From: Escherichia phage EC100 | Strand: one strand, 5' to 3' | Length of the DNA: 64,000 nucleotides | Sequence record: NC_105587.1 | In this document: positions 8,329 through 15,666 of the stretch, in pieces | Position numbering within the stretch: the stretch's first letter is position 1 | Layout of the letters: each line of letters starts with the position of its first letter | The notes under the pieces: model-generated | Databases searched by the model: none | Seen by the model: the letters and a program-made list of their open reading frames with translations, nothing else | What the model was told of the DNA's origin: nothing | Made by a program: the position numbers and the translations under genes

Positions 8329-10203
8329 ATGAATCGCAATGATGAACTAAAGTACAAGGAAATGCAGTCCTTGATTAGAAACTGCAAAGAAATTATTGAG
8401 GGTTCTGCTGATGAAGAGCTTCTCTTTAATAATGCGAATAAACCCTCTGAGCGTTTCCCTACACAAAGGGATATGCTTGCAGGGGAATTGAGTAAATATC
8501 TGATTCTAGAAGAAATGCCAATTCAGATTCGAAATGCTCATATGATTGGTGATATTCACTTTCATGATGCTGATTACGCTGCTTTAGGCATGACTAACTG
8601 TTGCCTAGTAGCCCTGGAAGATATGTTGAAAAATGGTATGAAAGTTGGTAATGCTGAAATTAGCACTCCAAACTCTATCACTACTGCGGCTGCTATTACA
8701 GCTCAGATTATCACACAGGTTAGTTCCCATCAGTATGGAGGTACTTCTGTAGACCGATTAGATGAGGTATTGGCTCCTTATGTTCGTAAGTCTTATGATA
8801 AGAATCATGCGTTTGCAAAACGTTGGACTAAGGATGAAGCCAAAGCATCAGTAATGGCTACGGAGATGACTGAAAAAGAAGTCTATGATGCTTGTCAAGG
8901 TCTAGAGTATGAAATCAATACGATGTTCAACTCTAATGGTCAGAGTCCATTTATTACCTTTGGTTTTGGTCTAGGAACTTCTTGGGAAGCACGTCTAGTA
9001 CAGAAAGCAATACTGAAAGTACGTATGGATGGCTTAGGCATCAATAAACGTACAGCTATCTTTCCGAAACTGGTGTTTGTTCTGCGTGATGGCGTAAATA
9101 TGAAGCCAGGAGATGTTAATTATGACATCAAGAAGTTAGCTATGAAATGTACTGCTGAACGTATGTATCCGGACTATATAAGCTATGATAAGGTTGTGGA
9201 AGTTACGGGCGACTATAAAGTTTCTATGGGCTGCCGTTCATTCCTAGCTGCTACAGAAGATGGTGAAACTGCCGGTCGTAATAACTTAGGTGTTGTTTCT
9301 ATAAACTTGCCTAGAATTGCTATCGAAGCTGAGGGGAATATTGATCTATTCTTTGATTTGCTTGAGTTACGTGTGGATACAGCGTTAAAAGCATTGGAGT
9401 GGAGGGTTGATCGCTTAAAATACATTCAAGCTAAAGCCGCACCCATCCTCTATATGTCAGGAGCCTTTGGATTACGCTTAGGGCCTGATGAGTATGTATT
9501 CGATCATTTCTATAACCGTGCTTCTGTATCTCTGGGGTATATTGGTTGCCATGAAATGTTACAGTTCATGTTTGGCAAAGATGTGGATACAATGTCAGAC
9601 ACCTGTATTAAGTTTGTACAACGTGTTCTACAGTATATGCGGGATAGAGTGGATCAGAAGAAGGAAGAGACTCAGTTAGGCTATAGTCTGTATGCTACAC
9701 CATCAGAGTCCCTATGTGATCGCTTTTGTCGTCTAGACCATGAATATTTCCCGGAGCATGAAGATATTCTGTCCAAAGGTTACTACACTAACTCACACCA
9801 CCTCGATGTGGAGCGTAAGGTTGCTCCAAACGTGAAGTTTGACTATGAATCTAATTTTACTCCAATTGCATCTGGTGGGTGTATTTCCTACGTGGAATTA
9901 CCAGACATGAAACGATTCCCAGATGCACTGGAATGGGTTATTAACTATGCTGCTAGTAAGGTTCATTACTTTGGTATTAATACTCCAGTGGATTCTTGTG
10001 GTAAATGTGGATTCTTAGGTGAAACAGTAGCATCCGAAGATGGATTCAAGTGCCCTATCTGTGGTAATCATGACCCTGAAACTCTTGAAGTAACTCGTCG
10101 AGTTTGTGGGTATCTTGGAAATCCAGGTGCTCGTCCGTTTAACCCAGGCAAACAACATGAGGTTATGGGCAGGGTGAAACATCAGGATATTCTAGCTAAA
10201 TAA
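8329..10203 (+). CDS. nrdD: anaerobic ribonucleotide reductase, class III catalytic subunit
   Basis: 624 aa; C-terminal Zn-ribbon CGKCG...CPICG and glycyl-radical motif RVCGYLG. Confidence 0.85.
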   Translation: MNRNDELKYKEMQSLIRNCKEIIEGSADEELLFNNANKPSERFPTQRDMLAGELSKYLILEEMPIQIRNAHMIGDIHFHDADYAALGMTNCCLVALEDMLKNGMKVGNAEISTPNSITTAAAITAQIITQVSSHQYGGTSVDRLDEVLAPYVRKSYDKNHAFAKRWTKDEAKASVMATEMTEKEVYDACQGLEYEINTMFNSNGQSPFITFGFGLGTSWEARLVQKAILKVRMDGLGINKRTAIFPKLVFVLRDGVNMKPGDVNYDIKKLAMKCTAERMYPDYISYDKVVEVTGDYKVSMGCRSFLAATEDGETAGRNNLGVVSINLPRIAIEAEGNIDLFFDLLELRVDTALKALEWRVDRLKYIQAKAAPILYMSGAFGLRLGPDEYVFDHFYNRASVSLGYIGCHEMLQFMFGKDVDTMSDTCIKFVQRVLQYMRDRVDQKKEETQLGYSLYATPSESLCDRFCRLDHEYFPEHEDILSKGYYTNSHHLDVERKVAPNVKFDYESNFTPIASGGCISYVELPDMKRFPDALEWVINYAASKVHYFGINTPVDSCGKCGFLGETVASEDGFKCPICGNHDPETLEVTRRVCGYLGNPGARPFNPGKQHEVMGRVKHQDILAK

Positions 10204-10210
10204 GCTAATC

Positions 10211-10245
10211 AGCCAGGTTGCTAGTCGACCTGGCTTTTATTTTAT
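10211..10245 (+). terminator. rho-independent terminator after nrdD
   Basis: AGCCAGGT / ACCTGGCT 8-bp stem followed by TTTTATTTTATTT. Confidence 0.7.
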
Positions 10246-10274
10246 TTGCTTTCAGCTAAAAATTTATGTATAAT
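10246..10274 (+). promoter_or_regulatory. cassette promoter, TTGCTT-17-TATAAT
   Basis: Followed by the conserved leader ATAGATTTATAAATTTGAGAGGAG and ATG at 10303. Confidence 0.6.
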
Positions 10275-10302
10275 AGATTTATAAATTTGAGAGGAGAAAG
10301 AT

Positions 10303-10515
10303 ATGAGGATTCATAAGGTAGATAAAGATCGTATCTATTTTGTTATGGACTCAGGAGCATATGGTTCCATTCTCTGTGAGGATATAACTAAATTATGTTT
10401 AGTAAATACTTGGATGGACGAAGAGAAGATTGATCCTAGGGCGGGATTGTGCTTATCTGAGCCCGCCCTTTCTATTGCTAATGCAGAAATTGAAATGTTT
10501 GAGGAACAAGAATGA
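10303..10515 (+). CDS. hypothetical protein
   Basis: 70-aa ORF directly behind the cassette promoter and SD. Confidence 0.45.
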   Translation: MRIHKVDKDRIYFVMDSGAYGSILCEDITKLCLVNTWMDEEKIDPRAGLCLSEPALSIANAEIEMFEEQE

Positions 10516-10715
10516 AAAACGTAAAACATCTTAAATATCGCTTAATTTACAACGGACGTATGGAAACAGAAGATCTGGCCCAACTAGCTATTAATTCTAA
10601 TGAGGTTACAGTGCGTGCACTGGCAATTGAAAAGTTGCGTGCTTCTTATGAAAATCGTGTTATGGAACTAGAGGAGAAACTTTATGGACTTCTTGAATCA
10701 GAATCTAAAAAGTAA
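10512..10715 (+). CDS. hypothetical protein
   Basis: 67-aa ORF, 4-nt overlap with upstream gene. Confidence 0.4.
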   Translation: MKNVKHLKYRLIYNGRMETEDLAQLAINSNEVTVRALAIEKLRASYENRVMELEEKLYGLLESESKK

Positions 10716-10878
10716 TCCAGAAAACATGCTTATTGAGCAGTGGAACTTTGGTTATAATGCTGGTGTAGCTACTTGTATTGCTAGATTGGATATGCTTATT
10801 AAACAAGAAAAGGTACGCCCGGAGGAAGCAATTTTACTCCGAAATATTATCGAAGGATTTAAGCAAGGAATCGTATAG
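10684..10878 (+). CDS. hypothetical protein
   Basis: 64-aa ORF in operon context. Confidence 0.35.
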   Translation: MDFLNQNLKSNPENMLIEQWNFGYNAGVATCIARLDMLIKQEKVRPEEAILLRNIIEGFKQGIV

Positions 10879-11714
10879 TGCGTAGATTAATTATTATTAG
10901 CGGTGCGGGTTTGAGTGTTGAAAGTGGTGTACGAGCTTTTCGTACTGATACTGCTAGTGGTAAAGCATTGTGGGATGATTATGACTTAGAAGAGGTATGT
11001 AATATTCATGCCTTTCGTGGTAATTTTTATCATAAAACTCATATGTTTTACAACAAGCGTCGTGAAGAGCTAAAAACTGTTGAACCCAATCTTGCACACT
11101 TGCGTATTGGTGAATGGTATAAGAAATATCCGGGTCAAGTAGTAAACTTGACTACCAACGTTGATGACCTTATTGAGCGTGCTGGCGTTCCACATAGTGA
11201 CATTCTGCACATTCATGGGTATTTAAAAGAGGTTGTTGTAGCTGATAGCTACAATAGTAGCAATAAACGAATTATTGATATTGGGTATAGCTCTATTGAC
11301 CCAGATGATTATAAATGGGTTAAACCTAATGTAATCTTCTTCGGGGAACATGCTCCAGCATATGCAGAAATGTACAATGTTTTTGATGGTATTACCAGTC
11401 AAGATATGATCATTGTGGTTGGTTGCTCTAATCAAGTAATTAACTTCTACTGGGAATTATTCCCTGTTCTTAATCTGACTTCTGCAAAACTTATGGTAGT
11501 TAACTACTATGATAGTGCTCTAGCGGTGGAACCAGGCTATCAAGGTATGACTCGTAGTGAGATGTACCAATTGGAAGAACGCGGTATCCCTTACTGGAGT
11601 AAAGGTGCGGTAGATGCTTTCAGTGACCCTGGTTTTATTGCTCGTGTAGAAGCCCATTTAGAGGGTAGACCTTATGTGCCGGAGAGAATGGGGAACAAAT
11701 ATGTCCATAGTTAA
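10878..11714 (+). CDS. Sir2 (sirtuin)-like NAD-binding protein
   Basis: 278 aa, GTG start; GAGLSVESGVRAFR, TTNVDDL and HIHG motifs; no CxxC...CxxC zinc ribbon seen. Confidence 0.7.
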   Translation: MRRLIIISGAGLSVESGVRAFRTDTASGKALWDDYDLEEVCNIHAFRGNFYHKTHMFYNKRREELKTVEPNLAHLRIGEWYKKYPGQVVNLTTNVDDLIERAGVPHSDILHIHGYLKEVVVADSYNSSNKRIIDIGYSSIDPDDYKWVKPNVIFFGEHAPAYAEMYNVFDGITSQDMIIVVGCSNQVINFYWELFPVLNLTSAKLMVVNYYDSALAVEPGYQGMTRSEMYQLEERGIPYWSKGAVDAFSDPGFIARVEAHLEGRPYVPERMGNKYVHS

Positions 11715-11883
11715 ATCTGTGTATACACATCCCGATGATATATTTGTATGGGCGGATGGTAGTTGGTGTTATCGATGTGAGCTATGGGAAATGGACTATA
11801 AATCCGATGACTATGGTGTCATATATGTTGATACGGCTGAGTATGATACGTTCTTAGAAAGGAACAAAAATGGAAATAAGTAA
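11701..11883 (+). CDS. hypothetical protein
   Basis: ATG at 11701 overlaps the Sir2 gene end by 14 nt; ORF-track start at 11674 is less likely. Confidence 0.3.
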   Translation: MSIVKSVYTHPDDIFVWADGSWCYRCELWEMDYKSDDYGVIYVDTAEYDTFLERNKNGNK

Positions 11884-12376
11884 TACTCCAATTATTTTTC
11901 TAGACATTGATGGGGTGCTTAATTCGAGCATCTCCCACCATCATGCACCTGATGATGAAAAGATTTTCTTTGGAAGTGACTGGGTTTTTAAACCACTTCT
12001 CAAGGCTTTTCAGGACTTTATTCGTCCTTCTCCAATAATGATTGTTGGGGTATCTTCATGGTTCTCTGTCAAGAATGAGATGGAGAACGTTCAGATTATG
12101 GCCGGATTAGATCTTATCGATCGTTTTCTTGGTACAACGGATTTTACTGGTGGTGGGCTATCTAGAGGTAATTCTGTTCTTCGCTTCGTTGAAAAGCATA
12201 AGCTCAAACATTGGTGTGTGCTGGATGACGCTGGTGCTATGATGTATCAGTATCCAACGGTTATAGTCAACGGTAGAACTGGAATAAATCTTCAAGATTT
12301 AAGAGCTGTTAGCTATATGTTAGAATTTAGTCCAGATCTTGAAATGTGTAAAGCCCTACAACAATTTAAGGTGTAA
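11870..12376 (+). CDS. HAD-superfamily phosphatase-like protein
   Basis: 168 aa; motif I FLDIDGVL near N-terminus and a C-terminal LDD acidic motif. Confidence 0.45.
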   Translation: MEISNTPIIFLDIDGVLNSSISHHHAPDDEKIFFGSDWVFKPLLKAFQDFIRPSPIMIVGVSSWFSVKNEMENVQIMAGLDLIDRFLGTTDFTGGGLSRGNSVLRFVEKHKLKHWCVLDDAGAMMYQYPTVIVNGRTGINLQDLRAVSYMLEFSPDLEMCKALQQFKV

Positions 12377-12378
12377 AT

Positions 12379-12807
12379 ATGTTCAATAATGTATTCTCTA
12401 AAGAAGCTAACCCAATATTGGTTAATTTTTGGCGTACTCTTCCAGACAACCTGTACAATGAGGCTATTAATGCTCTGAAAATATGGTGTGAGAATAATGA
12501 AATCTCCTTTGCTTTTAAAGGTGAGATTGAAGAAGCTCCCTGTATTGGTTTAATTGTGCAGGTAGAGGATGGCTTTGAAGAGATTGTCGGCTGGAAAGAG
12601 TTAGATGAAATGGGCTTGGTTTTTGCGTTAAACTATAAGCTGTTTATGCCTAATAAGCACCGTATTGTTGTTAACTATAAAACCAGTGAATCTCCGGGCT
12701 TTCAAGTTAATGAACATTACGGTTGGTCTTACTCACCGGAAGAAGTAAATGATGGTATACAAAAACTTCGTCGTTTTGGTTATCAAATTCCGGGTTTAAC
12801 CGCCTAA
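12379..12807 (+). CDS. hypothetical protein, paralog 1
   Basis: 142 aa; shares E(L)D..MGL(V/I)(F/V)ALN(Y/F).LF.P core and C-terminal (I/Y)(P/V)GL with the next ORF. Confidence 0.5.
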   Translation: MFNNVFSKEANPILVNFWRTLPDNLYNEAINALKIWCENNEISFAFKGEIEEAPCIGLIVQVEDGFEEIVGWKELDEMGLVFALNYKLFMPNKHRIVVNYKTSESPGFQVNEHYGWSYSPEEVNDGIQKLRRFGYQIPGLTA

Positions 12808-12817
12808 AGGGGGCACA

Positions 12818-13210
12818 ATGGAACAAGTATATTGGCGTCAGATTGATCCTAGTTTGGTGAAGCGTGCGGAGAAGCTGCTACAACGTTGGTTGGGGGTAAG
12901 ACAAGCCTCCTTCACTTTTCCGGAGCAGCAAATAGACGATCCCTGTGTTGGTGTTTTCCTATCAGGCTACGCTAGGGAATGGGAATTGGATTGGAATGAA
13001 TTGTCTGCTATGGGTTTAATTGTTGCACTAAATTTCTCTTTGTTCCATCCACGTGGTTTGGCCATATGTCGTGTGCCTGATGACGGTTGTTCGCCCCATC
13101 TTTTACAGGTGGAAGATGATATTTGGGAGTACACTCCAGATATTCTCAAAGAAGCCAAAGAACAATTAAACCGTGTTGGGATCTATGTTCCGGGGCTAAA
13201 TGATAAATGA
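12818..13210 (+). CDS. hypothetical protein, paralog 2
   Basis: 130 aa; tandem paralog of 12379-12807. Confidence 0.5.
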   Translation: MEQVYWRQIDPSLVKRAEKLLQRWLGVRQASFTFPEQQIDDPCVGVFLSGYAREWELDWNELSAMGLIVALNFSLFHPRGLAICRVPDDGCSPHLLQVEDDIWEYTPDILKEAKEQLNRVGIYVPGLNDK

Positions 13211-13233
13211 TTTTTATTAGTTGACCTCTGATT

Positions 13234-13262
13234 ACCGAGTCATTTTGGCTCGGTTTTCTCTA
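13234..13262 (+). terminator. putative rho-independent terminator
   Basis: ACCGAG / CTCGGT stem followed by TTTCTC. Confidence 0.4.
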
Positions 13263-13301
13263 TGCTCAAAGACACTGATAGCACCATCCGGAAAATTTTA
13301 C

Positions 13302-13330
13302 TTGCAGGATGCCCAAAATCTTGATATAAT
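13302..13330 (+). promoter_or_regulatory. extended -10 promoter (TTGCAG-17-TATAAT with TGn) with no ORF behind it
   Basis: TGATATAAT extended -10 at 13322-13330; the next ORF starts about 500 nt downstream. Confidence 0.5.
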
Positions 13331-13827
13331 ATTTATATTGAATTGAGAGACATTAGTAAAAATTGATTTTGCTAATTTTTCTTGTTTACAATCCGCGATA
13401 CGGAACAGTTAGGCTGCCCCATTAAGGGTTGTTTTAACTATTACTAGTGTTTATATTGCATTAGTTAATCTTCAATTAAGTGATCTGTGTACCCTGAATT
13501 CGGAAAGGTAAATCCAAACCGTGCATATTTAGCTCGTTATATAGGCAGAGTTTTATATGGGGGTGCGAACGAAAAGAGCAGCGAATGGCGGCACGTACAG
13601 TAGTCACCTACCAATAGGATAGTGAGGACAAATAGAATCGGCTTAGCGGCCAATGACCTAGGTTCTATTCTGTATATGAGCGAAGAGAGCACAGCACTGA
13701 GATATGATAACTTATTCATATTGTTTGATGATAATTGATGTTTACGTAAATAGTAGTAATAGTTGTTCTATTCTTTCTGAATAGTCCTAAAGAAAAGATT
13801 TCGATTAACCAACACAGGAGTATTGTT

Positions 13828-15666
13828 GTGTTTTCTATCCTTCAAGGTCACGCCGGATTTTCTCGTGATTTAGCAACAGGTATTTGGCGAGAAATCAAAG
13901 CGGAAGATTATACCTTTGCCAAGCGATTCTCGAAAGAGCATCCAGAAGGTAAACCAGCTTCTATGCCCTTCAAATTTGATGTAATAGAAGAGCACGACCC
14001 ACAAAGCCTTGCCGAAATGTTACCCCTTATGAGACGTTTAACGTCTGACCCTCATATCGTTGCGGTACGAGGTCGATGTCTTGCACCTAAAAATAATGTG
14101 CGACGTAAGAAAGGTAACTTTAATGTATCTAATCCTAGTAATATTATTGCTATGGACGTGGATGGTATCCTAGATACCGGTGGGTACGACAAATTTAATC
14201 TTGTTGGTATGGCCCGCCACATTATTAAGATGTTGAATAGTATTAGTGAGGATATGTTTCCTCTTGATGCAGGCTTTATAGCTCATGCATCATCTTCGGC
14301 TGGGCTAAAACCAGGTATCCGAATGCACTTAATGCTAGAATCTAACGTCAAGGTAACTCAGGGTCAGCTAAAGTTCTTATTTACATCTATCAACGATAGT
14401 AGTAAGCAAAAATTTGGTTTTGATATTGCCGACCTAGCTTATTATTCATCTGTCCAGCTCCACTATTTTGCCGACCCCTTATTTAGCGATGGTATTGTTG
14501 ATCCGTTTAAAGCGGAGAGTAAGCCACGTCTGGTGTATGTTAAAGGTTCGAAAGTAAATTTGCCCAATAATCTAGTTGACTATGAAACAACTAGAGGGGA
14601 GTTTAAGGAAGAGTTTTATTCTTTACTTGATCAAATTAAAGGCAAAAAGATTGCTTCTGATAAAGTAGAAGAAACCATCAGCGAGTTAGAAGAGGCTGAT
14701 GATGGAGTGTATTTGCGTATTATCCCCAAACTATACCATAGAGCATTAGAGGATGGTGTTGATTTTGCATGGCTAGAACGTGAGATTAAACCAGCTTTAT
14801 CTGAATATATTGCAACTAAAGATAACAGTCGTAATATTCAAGATTACTTTAATAACGGTCGTAAGCAGGCTCTCAAAGCGTTTGTTAATAATTCTAAACG
14901 TGAGATTCCATTAAATCTGAAAGGTGTTCCACTTAAGAAATTAGAAGTGGATTCTCCACCAGAAGTTCCATACCTGAAGATTAATATTGTGCCCCCAAAA
15001 GGCCATATAACATTTGTTAAGGCAAGTCTTGGTACGGGTAAAACTACGGCAGTAACTAAATGGCTGGACGCAGGTGTTCTTCCGGGCAACTTTTTAGCAG
15101 TTACAAATACTAGAGCACTGGTATCTTCAAATGCCAAGAAATTTAGTGCAGGACAATACGATAAGTCTGTAGATATGCTCAACTTTAAGCGTGGAGCTAT
15201 TGATCGTATGTCCACAACTATTCACTCTTTGCATAAGTTCAAAAGTTTTATTGGGCAAATAGACACCATTTTTATTGATGAATGTGACGCTGTAATGAAT
15301 GACCTATTATTCGCCCCTGTTGTTAAACAACGTCGTGAGTGTATTCAAGTTCTACGTGACATCCTCATGACAGCTAAGACTGTAATCTTATCCGATGGTG
15401 ATATTAGTGCTGAGACGATTGAAGCATATGGTTCTCTAATTGATTTTGATAAACCGGTTGCATTTTATAATCATCACCGTAAAATGCTGTCAAAAGCTCA
15501 TGCTTATGAGTTCCCTGATGAGTCCAGTATTTGGGTTGCACTTCAGACTTCTCTAGAGATGGGTGAGAAATCTATTCTAGTATCTGATTGTGGCCCGGAT
15601 GAGCTAAATGAGAAAGGTATGGCACTGCGTCGTAATACGGGTGCGTTAGTTAAGGAAATCCATTGA
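13828..15666 (+). CDS. helicase-like protein, N-terminal portion, ends at in-frame TGA
   Basis: 612 aa, GTG start with AGGAG SD; Walker A GTGKTT and Walker B IFIDECD. Confidence 0.6.
   Translation: MFSILQGHAGFSRDLATGIWREIKAEDYTFAKRFSKEHPEGKPASMPFKFDVIEEHDPQSLAEMLPLMRRLTSDPHIVAVRGRCLAPKNNVRRKKGNFNVSNPSNIIAMDVDGILDTGGYDKFNLVGMARHIIKMLNSISEDMFPLDAGFIAHASSSAGLKPGIRMHLMLESNVKVTQGQLKFLFTSINDSSKQKFGFDIADLAYYSSVQLHYFADPLFSDGIVDPFKAESKPRLVYVKGSKVNLPNNLVDYETTRGEFKEEFYSLLDQIKGKKIASDKVEETISELEEADDGVYLRIIPKLYHRALEDGVDFAWLEREIKPALSEYIATKDNSRNIQDYFNNGRKQALKAFVNNSKREIPLNLKGVPLKKLEVDSPPEVPYLKINIVPPKGHITFVKASLGTGKTTAVTKWLDAGVLPGNFLAVTNTRALVSSNAKKFSAGQYDKSVDMLNFKRGAIDRMSTTIHSLHKFKSFIGQIDTIFIDECDAVMNDLLFAPVVKQRRECIQVLRDILMTAKTVILSDGDISAETIEAYGSLIDFDKPVAFYNHHRKMLSKAHAYEFPDESSIWVALQTSLEMGEKSILVSDCGPDELNEKGMALRRNTGALVKEIH

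Follow-up and report, generated by a model that had tools for sequence, protein, structure and literature searches.

An old tandem duplication of a DUF7415 gene, with asymmetric divergence of the copies, in a T5-like Escherichia phage

This study deals with two adjacent genes, here called P1 and P2, from Escherichia phage EC100 (NC_105587.1). They lie within a stretch of 64,000 nucleotides (nt), presented as one strand, which we refer to as the window. Both encode members of the DUF7415 family (Pfam PF24187), and together they are the outcome of an old tandem duplication whose copies have been retained almost everywhere among enterobacterial T5-like phages, while diverging asymmetrically. P2 has kept the canonical motif of the family, whereas P1 has lost most of it. 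The genes and the modules of their products are located as follows.

12379..12807, + strand: P1 gene, 142 amino acids (aa), corresponding to T5.106 / ORF098; the paralogue with the degenerate family motif
12379..12420, + strand: P1 N-terminal extension, residues 1-14; residues 1-11 have a predicted local distance difference test score (pLDDT) <50 and are predicted to be disordered
12421..12564, + strand: P1 N-terminal module, residues 15-62; a strand, a helix, and two strands in the AlphaFold2 (AF2) model
12580..12753, + strand: P1 C-terminal DUF7415 module, residues 68-125; canonical motif degenerated (LFMPNKHRIVVNYKTSES)
12818..13210, + strand: P2 gene, 130 aa, corresponding to T5.107; the paralogue keeping the canonical DUF7415 motif
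12824..12970, + strand: P2 N-terminal module, residues 3-51; variable and rich in indels from its second half through the linker (residues 27-57)
12986..13159, + strand: P2 C-terminal canonical DUF7415 module, residues 57-114 (WNELSAMGLIVALNFSLFHPRGLAICRVPDDGCS...IWEY)

The first-pass annotation had described two adjacent open reading frames (ORFs) of 142 and 130 aa that share a core (P1 KELDEMGLVFALNYKLFMP vs P2 NELSAMGLIVALNFSLFHP) and a C-terminal PGL (QIPGL in P1 vs YVPGL in P2), all of which is indeed present. Pairwise alignment finds the similarity to be significant: BLASTP aligns 126 aa of P1 and P2 at 31% identity (E = 2e-19), and their Smith-Waterman score of 158 stands against 27.8 +/- 4.9 (maximum 55) for shuffled sequences (n = 2000), corresponding to z = 26.7. 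When the halves are compared between the copies by pairwise shuffles, z amounts to 12.4 for the two N-terminal and 20.5 for the two C-terminal halves. Judged by sequence, P1 and P2 are homologous over their whole length, and the paralogy is real. Neither copy is a pseudogene in the window, as each has an open frame, is subject to purifying selection, and yields a confident AF2 model (pLDDT 88.1 for P1; pLDDT 92.6 and a predicted template modeling score of 0.86 for P2). Across this region, identity is 100% with Escherichia phages EC104, EC105, EC122, and EC142 and ~97% with T5, and the window can be assigned to a T5-like phage. P1 shares 98.6% aa identity with T5.106 and P2 94.6% with T5.107, both of which are annotated as hypothetical in the T5 reference records.

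The two proteins are clear members of PF24187 (114.2 bits for P1 and 108.3 bits for P2, with a gathering threshold of 27 bits and a model length of 53 positions). They also match phrog_2502 over its full length (positions 2-134 of 134; E = 3.6e-62 for P1 and 1.9e-61 for P2), and the C-module of P2 additionally matches phrog_3954 (E = 2e-18). PHROG 2502 is the two-module form of DUF7415 and PHROG 3954 the single-module form. These families are themselves only sequence labels. Both proteins are acidic (isoelectric point (pI) 4.7, with a family median of 4.9), and each is a soluble alpha/beta protein of ~130-140 aa, in which an N-module and a C-terminal DUF7415 module are followed by a closing helix. 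In the PDB, neither sequence nor profile searches matched P1 or P2, NCBIfam returned nothing meaningful, and Pfam found no Lar domain (PF14354) in either protein. Likewise, no PADLOC model matched P1, P2, or the products of the HAD- and Sir2-family genes just upstream at E <= 1. DUF7415 folds confidently but is without a structural or functional relative.

Whether the architecture is itself repetitive is a separate question. The Pfam model recognizes the isolated N halves (E = 6e-18 for P1 and 8e-16 for P2) as well as the isolated C halves (E = 4e-14 and 2e-14, respectively), each above threshold at 53-65 bits, and a strand-helix-strand-strand pattern repeats within both AF2 models. On the other hand, hhalign gives a probability of 9% for N-half vs C-half profiles, a hidden Markov model (HMM) built from single-module proteins does not detect the N halves, and pairwise shuffles of N half vs C half reach a z of at most 2.1. 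The Pfam half matches would mean four modules in a row across both genes, which is plausible but unconfirmed, as the independent profiles and pairwise tests did not reproduce it.

The divergence of the copies is most evident in their C-modules. The same HMM, built from 34 single-module proteins, scores the P2-type C-modules at 64.8 (window), 50.5 (Sugarlandvirus), and 63.1 bits (phage Eos), whereas the P1-type C-modules reach only 23.6, 5.1, and 22.2 bits, respectively. The C-module of P2 conforms to the canonical motif W-N-x-L-S-x-x-G-L...N...H-P-x-G-x-A...R...G-x-S...W-x-Y. That of P1 retains the W, the G-L, and the N but has lost the H, the G-x-A, and the R, with H-P-x-G-L-A...R replaced by M-P-N-K-H-R...V, so that most of the motif that defines the single-module members is gone. 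The P1 tail (residues 119-142) is near-invariant within the Markadamsvirinae (LRRFGYQIPGLT) according to the entropy profile. In the alignments, the N-terminal extension of P1 has no counterpart in P2, but a similar one is found in the single-copy protein of Serratia phage Slocum. The divergence is asymmetric: P2 has kept N..HP.G.A..R...G.S...W.Y, and P1, having lost most of it, has kept the N-terminal extension and the tail.

Orthologues of both P1 and P2 are present in Tequinta-, Epseptima-, and Sugarlandviruses and in phage Eos, and the best match of each copy in other genera is its orthologue (E ~1e-23 to 1e-32) and not its paralogue. In the Klebsiella Sugarlandvirus JIPh_Kp127, for example, the adjacent genes 0125 and 0126 match P1 (2e-23) and P2 (1e-23), respectively, with far weaker matches across the paralogues, and phage Eos gives a similar orthologue-wise pattern. 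The distant two-module relatives were found by tblastn against annotated phages. Among them, phage Slocum, a member of the Demerecviridae outside the Tequinta-/Epseptima-/Sugarlandvirus and Eos groups, carries one two-module gene of 164 aa (CPT_Slocum_143) in the P1/P2 slot. Its start overlaps the Sir2 stop, and a terminator and then the origin-binding gene follow. The Slocum protein is equally similar to P1 (E = 2e-19) and P2 (8e-18); it shares the slot and architecture of the pair but occurs as a single copy, and it combines a P1-type N-terminal extension and an FGFQIPEL tail with the canonical motif kept by P2. The duplication is old, as indicated by the orthologue-wise matches of Sugarlandvirus and Eos and by the one Slocum gene, equidistant from both copies. 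Most simply, a Slocum-like gene was duplicated in tandem in an ancestor of Markadamsvirinae, Sugarlandvirus, and Eos, within the enterobacterial branch of the Demerecviridae, with the single gene of Slocum probably representing the unduplicated state, although Slocum may instead have lost one copy. The earlier proposal of tandem duplication followed by divergence is borne out.

Both copies have been kept with great consistency. P1-type genes occur in 516-518 and P2-type genes in 521 of ~528 enterobacterial T5-like records (those with an origin-binding protein at >=60% identity, Proteus excluded), and ~98% carry both. The pair is not universal in the Demerecviridae. It is missing in the T5-likes of Proteus (phage Stubb) and Vibrio (phages Bennett and D30) that were examined, all of which carry the origin-binding gene but have neither Sir2 nor a DUF7415 gene near it. 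As a side note, near-identical T5-like sequences also appear under implausible hosts (“Listeria phage LM 4-14-1” and “Campylobacter phage A148”), and partial “Enterococcus faecalis” proteins are 98-99% identical to P1; the T5-like sequences under Enterococcus, Listeria, and Campylobacter names are probably contamination or mislabeling.

Selection was assessed by pairwise ratios of nonsynonymous to synonymous substitution rates (dN/dS, Nei-Gojobori). These range from 0.04 to 0.11 for P1 and from 0.20 to 0.30 for P2, next to 0.08-0.27 for the neighboring Sir2 gene, 0.05-0.10 for the HAD gene, and 0.00-0.10 for the origin-binding protein. Since these ratios are well below 1, both copies are under purifying selection. 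Between genera, the aa sequences of the pair do diverge faster than that of the replication (origin-binding) protein, with ~35% aa identity between Tequintavirus and Sugarlandvirus for P1 and P2 vs 79% for the latter. The first-pass annotation had taken the pair as typical of rapidly evolving accessory loci. This is not supported, considering the ancient duplication, the ~98% retention, and the low dN/dS of both copies. Some accessory and variable character remains in the absence of the pair from the Proteus and Vibrio phages, in the alleles of the P2 loop, and in occasional disrupted copies.

As to this variation, it is focused in residues 27-57 of P2, indels included, in both the entropy profile and the alignment, and P2 alleles fall into at least three groups that are ~95%, 73%, and 65% identical to the window copy. 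In Salmonella phage RN29, Sir2 is of the T5 type (95% identity), P1 is of the Stitch type (96.5% identity), and P2 is a third allele (65-73% identity to the window and Stitch copies). Such a mosaic operon implies recombination breakpoints inside the operon. In Escherichia phage MM-2, a 1-nt deletion near codon 35 splits P2 into two ORFs of ~66 aa (L090 3501-3892), and an HNH endonuclease gene (L090 4032-4484) is inserted in the non-coding region that separates the pair from the origin-binding gene. In ESCO40, P2 is directly followed by an additional ORF of 63 aa (L003 2903-3094). Truncated cluster representatives of the family also exist, and the disrupted copies may be either real losses or sequencing errors.

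When 1.84 billion representative proteins were searched exhaustively with a profile, only 136 clusters were retrieved at E <= 0.001, of which ~20 are two-module and the rest mostly single-module (60-200 aa), with a family core of approximately IDWNxLSxLGLIxRINxEILHPLGLAxxRxPETGxSxGxLVxDDGxWEY. In T4-like phages, the C-module of P2 has single-module homologues (E = 1e-13 to 2e-14). Single-module proteins such as Aeh1 ORF299c, Lw1 gp175, the Jiaodavirus nrdD-nrdG ORF, and those of P2/186-like prophages share this C-module and its motif, but they consist of one module (60-90 aa) or are fused to small domains, reside in other neighborhoods, and are not tandemly duplicated. In Klebsiella Jiaodavirus KEN25_2, the gene (L006 2980-3213) lies between nrdD and nrdG, overlapping the former at its end and the latter at its start, and is thereby embedded in the anaerobic ribonucleotide reductase operon; in Aeh1 it directly follows rnlA, and in Lw1 it lies near nudE. 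A census of 80 IMG/VR loci, mostly P2/186-like prophages, found the module immediately upstream of replication gene A in ~19 loci, where it is often fused to DUF5405 (DUF5405-DUF7415) and preceded by a TraR/DksA zinc-finger gene. In other loci it lies just downstream of gene A, adjoining a Dam-type methylase, and in ~12 loci it is placed between the head-completion gene gpL and the lysis genes. Across these 80 loci and several annotated phages the contexts are varied, without a constant (enzymatic) neighbor. The DUF5405-DUF7415 fusion, which in 186/P2-like prophages sits between the TraR/DksA gene and gene A, measures 157 aa (L036, L046, L049, and similar loci), and P2-type phages in GenBank have only the DUF5405 part at this position upstream of gene A.

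Among 70 longer relatives, only heterogeneous small domains were found as fusion partners, namely DUF3850/ASCH, DUF551, DUF5405, Cox HTH, Lar and other zinc ribbons, and one thymidylate kinase. The Lar-DUF7415 fusion stems from one prophage relative (L061) and scores 28.8 bits vs a cutoff of 28.6. The zinc ribbons (Lar included), Cox HTH, DUF3850/ASCH, and DUF5405 are all typical of phage early-region accessory proteins. In plasmids, a DUF7415 match was found in only 2 of 72,556. Based on these searches, the family is restricted to phages (T5-, T4-, and P2-like).

In the window, P1 and P2 are the last two genes of an early operon, whose further elements are listed below.

10211..10235, + strand: terminator after nrdD, delimiting the operon on its upstream side; in T5, a terminator and a promoter are annotated there
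10878..11714, + strand: Sir2-family gene (T5.102); Pfam SIR2, E = 9e-25
11674-11883: 69-aa ORF (phrog_5116), overlapping the Sir2 3' end by 41 nt and the HAD start by 14 nt
11870..12376, + strand: HAD-family phosphatase gene (T5.105); Pfam HAD_SAK_2, E = 2.9e-20; its stop lies 2 nt before the P1 start
12808..12813, + strand: Shine-Dalgarno sequence of P2 (AGGGGG), directly after the P1 stop (12805-12807)
13234..13254, + strand: Rho-independent terminator closing the operon, with a 9-pair stem followed by a T run; T5 annotates a terminator at the same place

The operon thus runs from small ORFs through Sir2, the 69-aa ORF, the HAD phosphatase, P1, and P2 to the terminator, with nrdD (anaerobic ribonucleotide reductase) upstream and the gene for the origin-binding protein downstream. 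The ATG of P2 lies 10 nt beyond the P1 stop, and the layout of the HAD/P1 and P1/P2 junctions, including AGGAGG or AGGGGG before P2, is kept in T5, Stitch, and RN29. The gene junctions are tight enough to suggest coupled translation of P1 and P2. Across the Demerecviridae, the slot between PhoH/nrdD and the origin-binding gene varies. Sir2 and DUF7415 are present or absent together, being jointly present in Tequinta-, Epseptima-, and Sugarlandvirus, Eos, and Slocum, and HAD occurs only in the Markadamsvirinae.

Some observations concern the surroundings of the pair. Where the window has the 69-aa ORF, T5 annotates two small ORFs (T5.103 and T5.104). T5.105 is labeled “Sir2 (NAD-dependent deacetylase)” in RefSeq and PHROG 18062, but Pfam assigns it to HAD_SAK_2 with a full-length match, and Aeh1 ORF303c is its homologue. 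The Sir2 label seems to be an annotation error that has spread between records, with the real Sir2 gene at 10878-11714. Between the operon terminator and the origin-binding protein gene lie ~570 bp of non-coding DNA (13255-13827) that contain promoter-like sites and an 18-nt inverted repeat (13436-13453 / 13747-13764, 89% complementary). An Rfam scan of positions 10000-14000 found no RNA family.

How could such a pair act? The explanation that we favor, while granting it somewhat less than an even chance, is that P1 and P2 form a non-enzymatic binding pair directed, early in infection, at a conserved component of the host or the phage, or at a ligand. They would not be enzymes but would act by binding, and would do so together as a hetero-oligomer, in which P2 would provide the ancestral binding site and P1 would be a specialized partner or scaffold. 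The target would be met early in infection, either during host takeover or in counter-defense. P1 and P2 have no sequence or structure sign of catalysis, nor do they have a constant enzymatic partner. The motif is conserved across T5-, T4-, and P2-like phages, which argues for an invariant target and not a fast-changing defense protein. Moreover, as the two copies are retained together while one keeps and the other loses the motif, a heteromer of a “live” and a “dead” subunit fits better than redundancy.

Several points weigh against this explanation. The hints from genomic context diverge (replication initiators, nrdD/nrdG, rnlA, and the lysis cassette), indicating no single target. That P1 and P2 would interact is deduced solely from their joint retention, their coupling, and the asymmetry of their divergence. 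The invariant N, H, R, and S could just as well make up a site for catalysis or ligand binding where the subunits of a dimer meet. The disrupted copies in a few genomes would either mean that the genes are dispensable, at least under laboratory conditions, or reflect sequencing errors. Finally, our literature searches found nothing on DUF7415, DUF5405, the PHROG identifiers, the T5 locus tags, or the function of these genes.

An anti-defense or host-takeover role for P1 and P2 would be possible. A host-range role through receptor binding is unlikely, because the proteins are acidic, cytoplasmic, and encoded in an early operon. The small phage-borne proteins Tad1, Tad2, Acb2, and Lar are early non-enzymatic binders, as is proposed here for P1 and P2, but they show no sequence or fold similarity to them, and P1 and P2 are without a Lar domain. 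AcrIC4 (PDB 8dfo_M) is a small anti-CRISPR protein that binds type I-C Cascade. A relation of the pair to AcrIC4 was considered and rejected, as they are not significantly similar in structure or sequence. Rad, the anti-retron protein of T5, is ORF071 and not T5.106 or T5.107 (PMC10644984). In the literature, recent functional studies of T5 concern pre-early genes only, and work on T5 anti-defense and phage Sir2 holds no functional data on P1 or P2.

Among the alternatives, a role as an accessory of replication or nucleotide supply is unlikely in our view. Here, the module would bind an initiator, an origin complex, or an enzyme of dNTP synthesis and thereby modulate phage DNA synthesis. It draws on the position of the pair, which in every member of the Demerecviridae that carries it directly precedes the origin-binding gene, on the 186/P2-like prophages with the module beside gene A, on the overlap with nrdD and nrdG in Jiaodavirus together with nrdD preceding the operon in T5, and on the relative fused to thymidylate kinase. 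However, adjacency in dense early regions is a weak argument, and the pair is set apart from the origin-binding gene by a terminator and a promoter. In the T5-likes of Proteus and Vibrio, the same origin-binding protein occurs without a DUF7415 gene, about a dozen P2-like loci put the gene between gpL and the lysis genes, and the Aeh1 and Lw1 genes adjoin rnlA and nudE instead.

P1 and P2 could also be partners of the phage Sir2 (and HAD), regulating, targeting, or neutralizing the NAD-dependent Sir2, for example, as a substrate adaptor or inhibitor. The joint presence of Sir2 and DUF7415 in five lineages, their joint absence in Stubb, Bennett, and D30, and the overlap of start and stop in Slocum all speak for it. 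A single ancestral gain would, however, explain the co-occurrence, which is therefore not independent evidence. Sir2 is a neighbor in 0 of the 80 single-module loci and in none of the T4-like contexts, and HAD is missing in Sugarlandvirus, Eos, and Slocum though the DUF7415 genes stay. We consider such a partnership distinctly improbable.

A reading along the lines of the first-pass annotation, that of a fast-evolving arms-race locus for host range or anti-defense in which a recent duplication diversifies under positive selection, can point to the allele groups and the indel-rich loop of P2, to mosaic recombination at the locus, and to the fusion with the Lar restriction-alleviation domain in one relative. 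Against these stand the ancient duplication with both copies almost universally kept, a gene-wide dN/dS that is lowest in the more diverged-looking P1, a core motif that is kept across phage families, and the absence of the family from plasmids, where generic anti-restriction genes are common. Altogether, this scenario is very unlikely to apply.

There is only a slight chance that the proteins serve as a sponge for a signal or nucleotide, in which the module would oligomerize and the invariant N, H, R, S, W, and Y would build a pocket that sequesters a ligand, in the manner of Tad1, Tad2, and Acb2. A small phage-restricted module that recurs in unrelated phage families at varied positions would suit such a function, its conserved polar/aromatic motif suggests an invariant ligand, and the two-module proteins resemble covalent pseudo-dimers. 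Besides the lack of sequence or fold similarity to known sponges, wild-type T5 has been used as a Pycsar- and CBASS-sensitive phage (10.1101/2025.08.24.671296). Being sensitive to Pycsar and to a CBASS system, T5 is therefore without activity against those signals.

The database labels “exonuclease” (ACLAME 70; in T5_ev219, ESCO40, and GEC_vB_N5) and “tail tube protein” (in JLBYU43, HMD-7, and ZBSTP12) are almost certainly wrong, as they consist of product names alone, Pfam, NCBIfam, and PHROGs give no nuclease or tail-tube family match and the PDB no sequence match, the early operon lies far from the structural genes, and most records, the T5 references included, say hypothetical. Both identities were rejected: P1 and P2 have no recognizable nuclease domain, fold, or catalytic motif, and they have neither a tail-tube fold nor a location in a late structural module.

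Returning to the favored binding pair, a bolder version can be formulated, although we would be surprised if it proved correct in full. DUF7415 would then be an unrecognized phage-restricted binding fold that lacks a solved relative, and the T5 pair an obligate heterodimer of a “live” P2 module and a “dead” P1 module, derived covalently and genetically from an ancestral homodimer, that captures a conserved host factor or a nucleotide-derived ligand early in infection, possibly with the co-inherited Sir2. If true, this would define a new class of host-takeover or counter-defense proteins common to T5-, T4-, and P2-like phages.

The pair as such was already catalogued (T5.106/T5.107, adjacent DUF7415 members in a model phage) and is not a new kind of system. 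New here are the age and asymmetry of the duplication, the probable unduplicated state in Slocum, the phage-restricted spread of the family, its lack of a fold relative, and the rejection of the misleading labels, which corrects the annotation of the pair as “exonuclease” or “tail tube protein” and that of T5.105 as “Sir2”. In short, the two genes offer a tidy example, from a model phage, of an old tandem duplication whose copies have diverged asymmetrically. DUF7415, being conserved across T5-, T4-, and P2-like phages, is of value as a lead in phage early biology, and T5 is genetically tractable.

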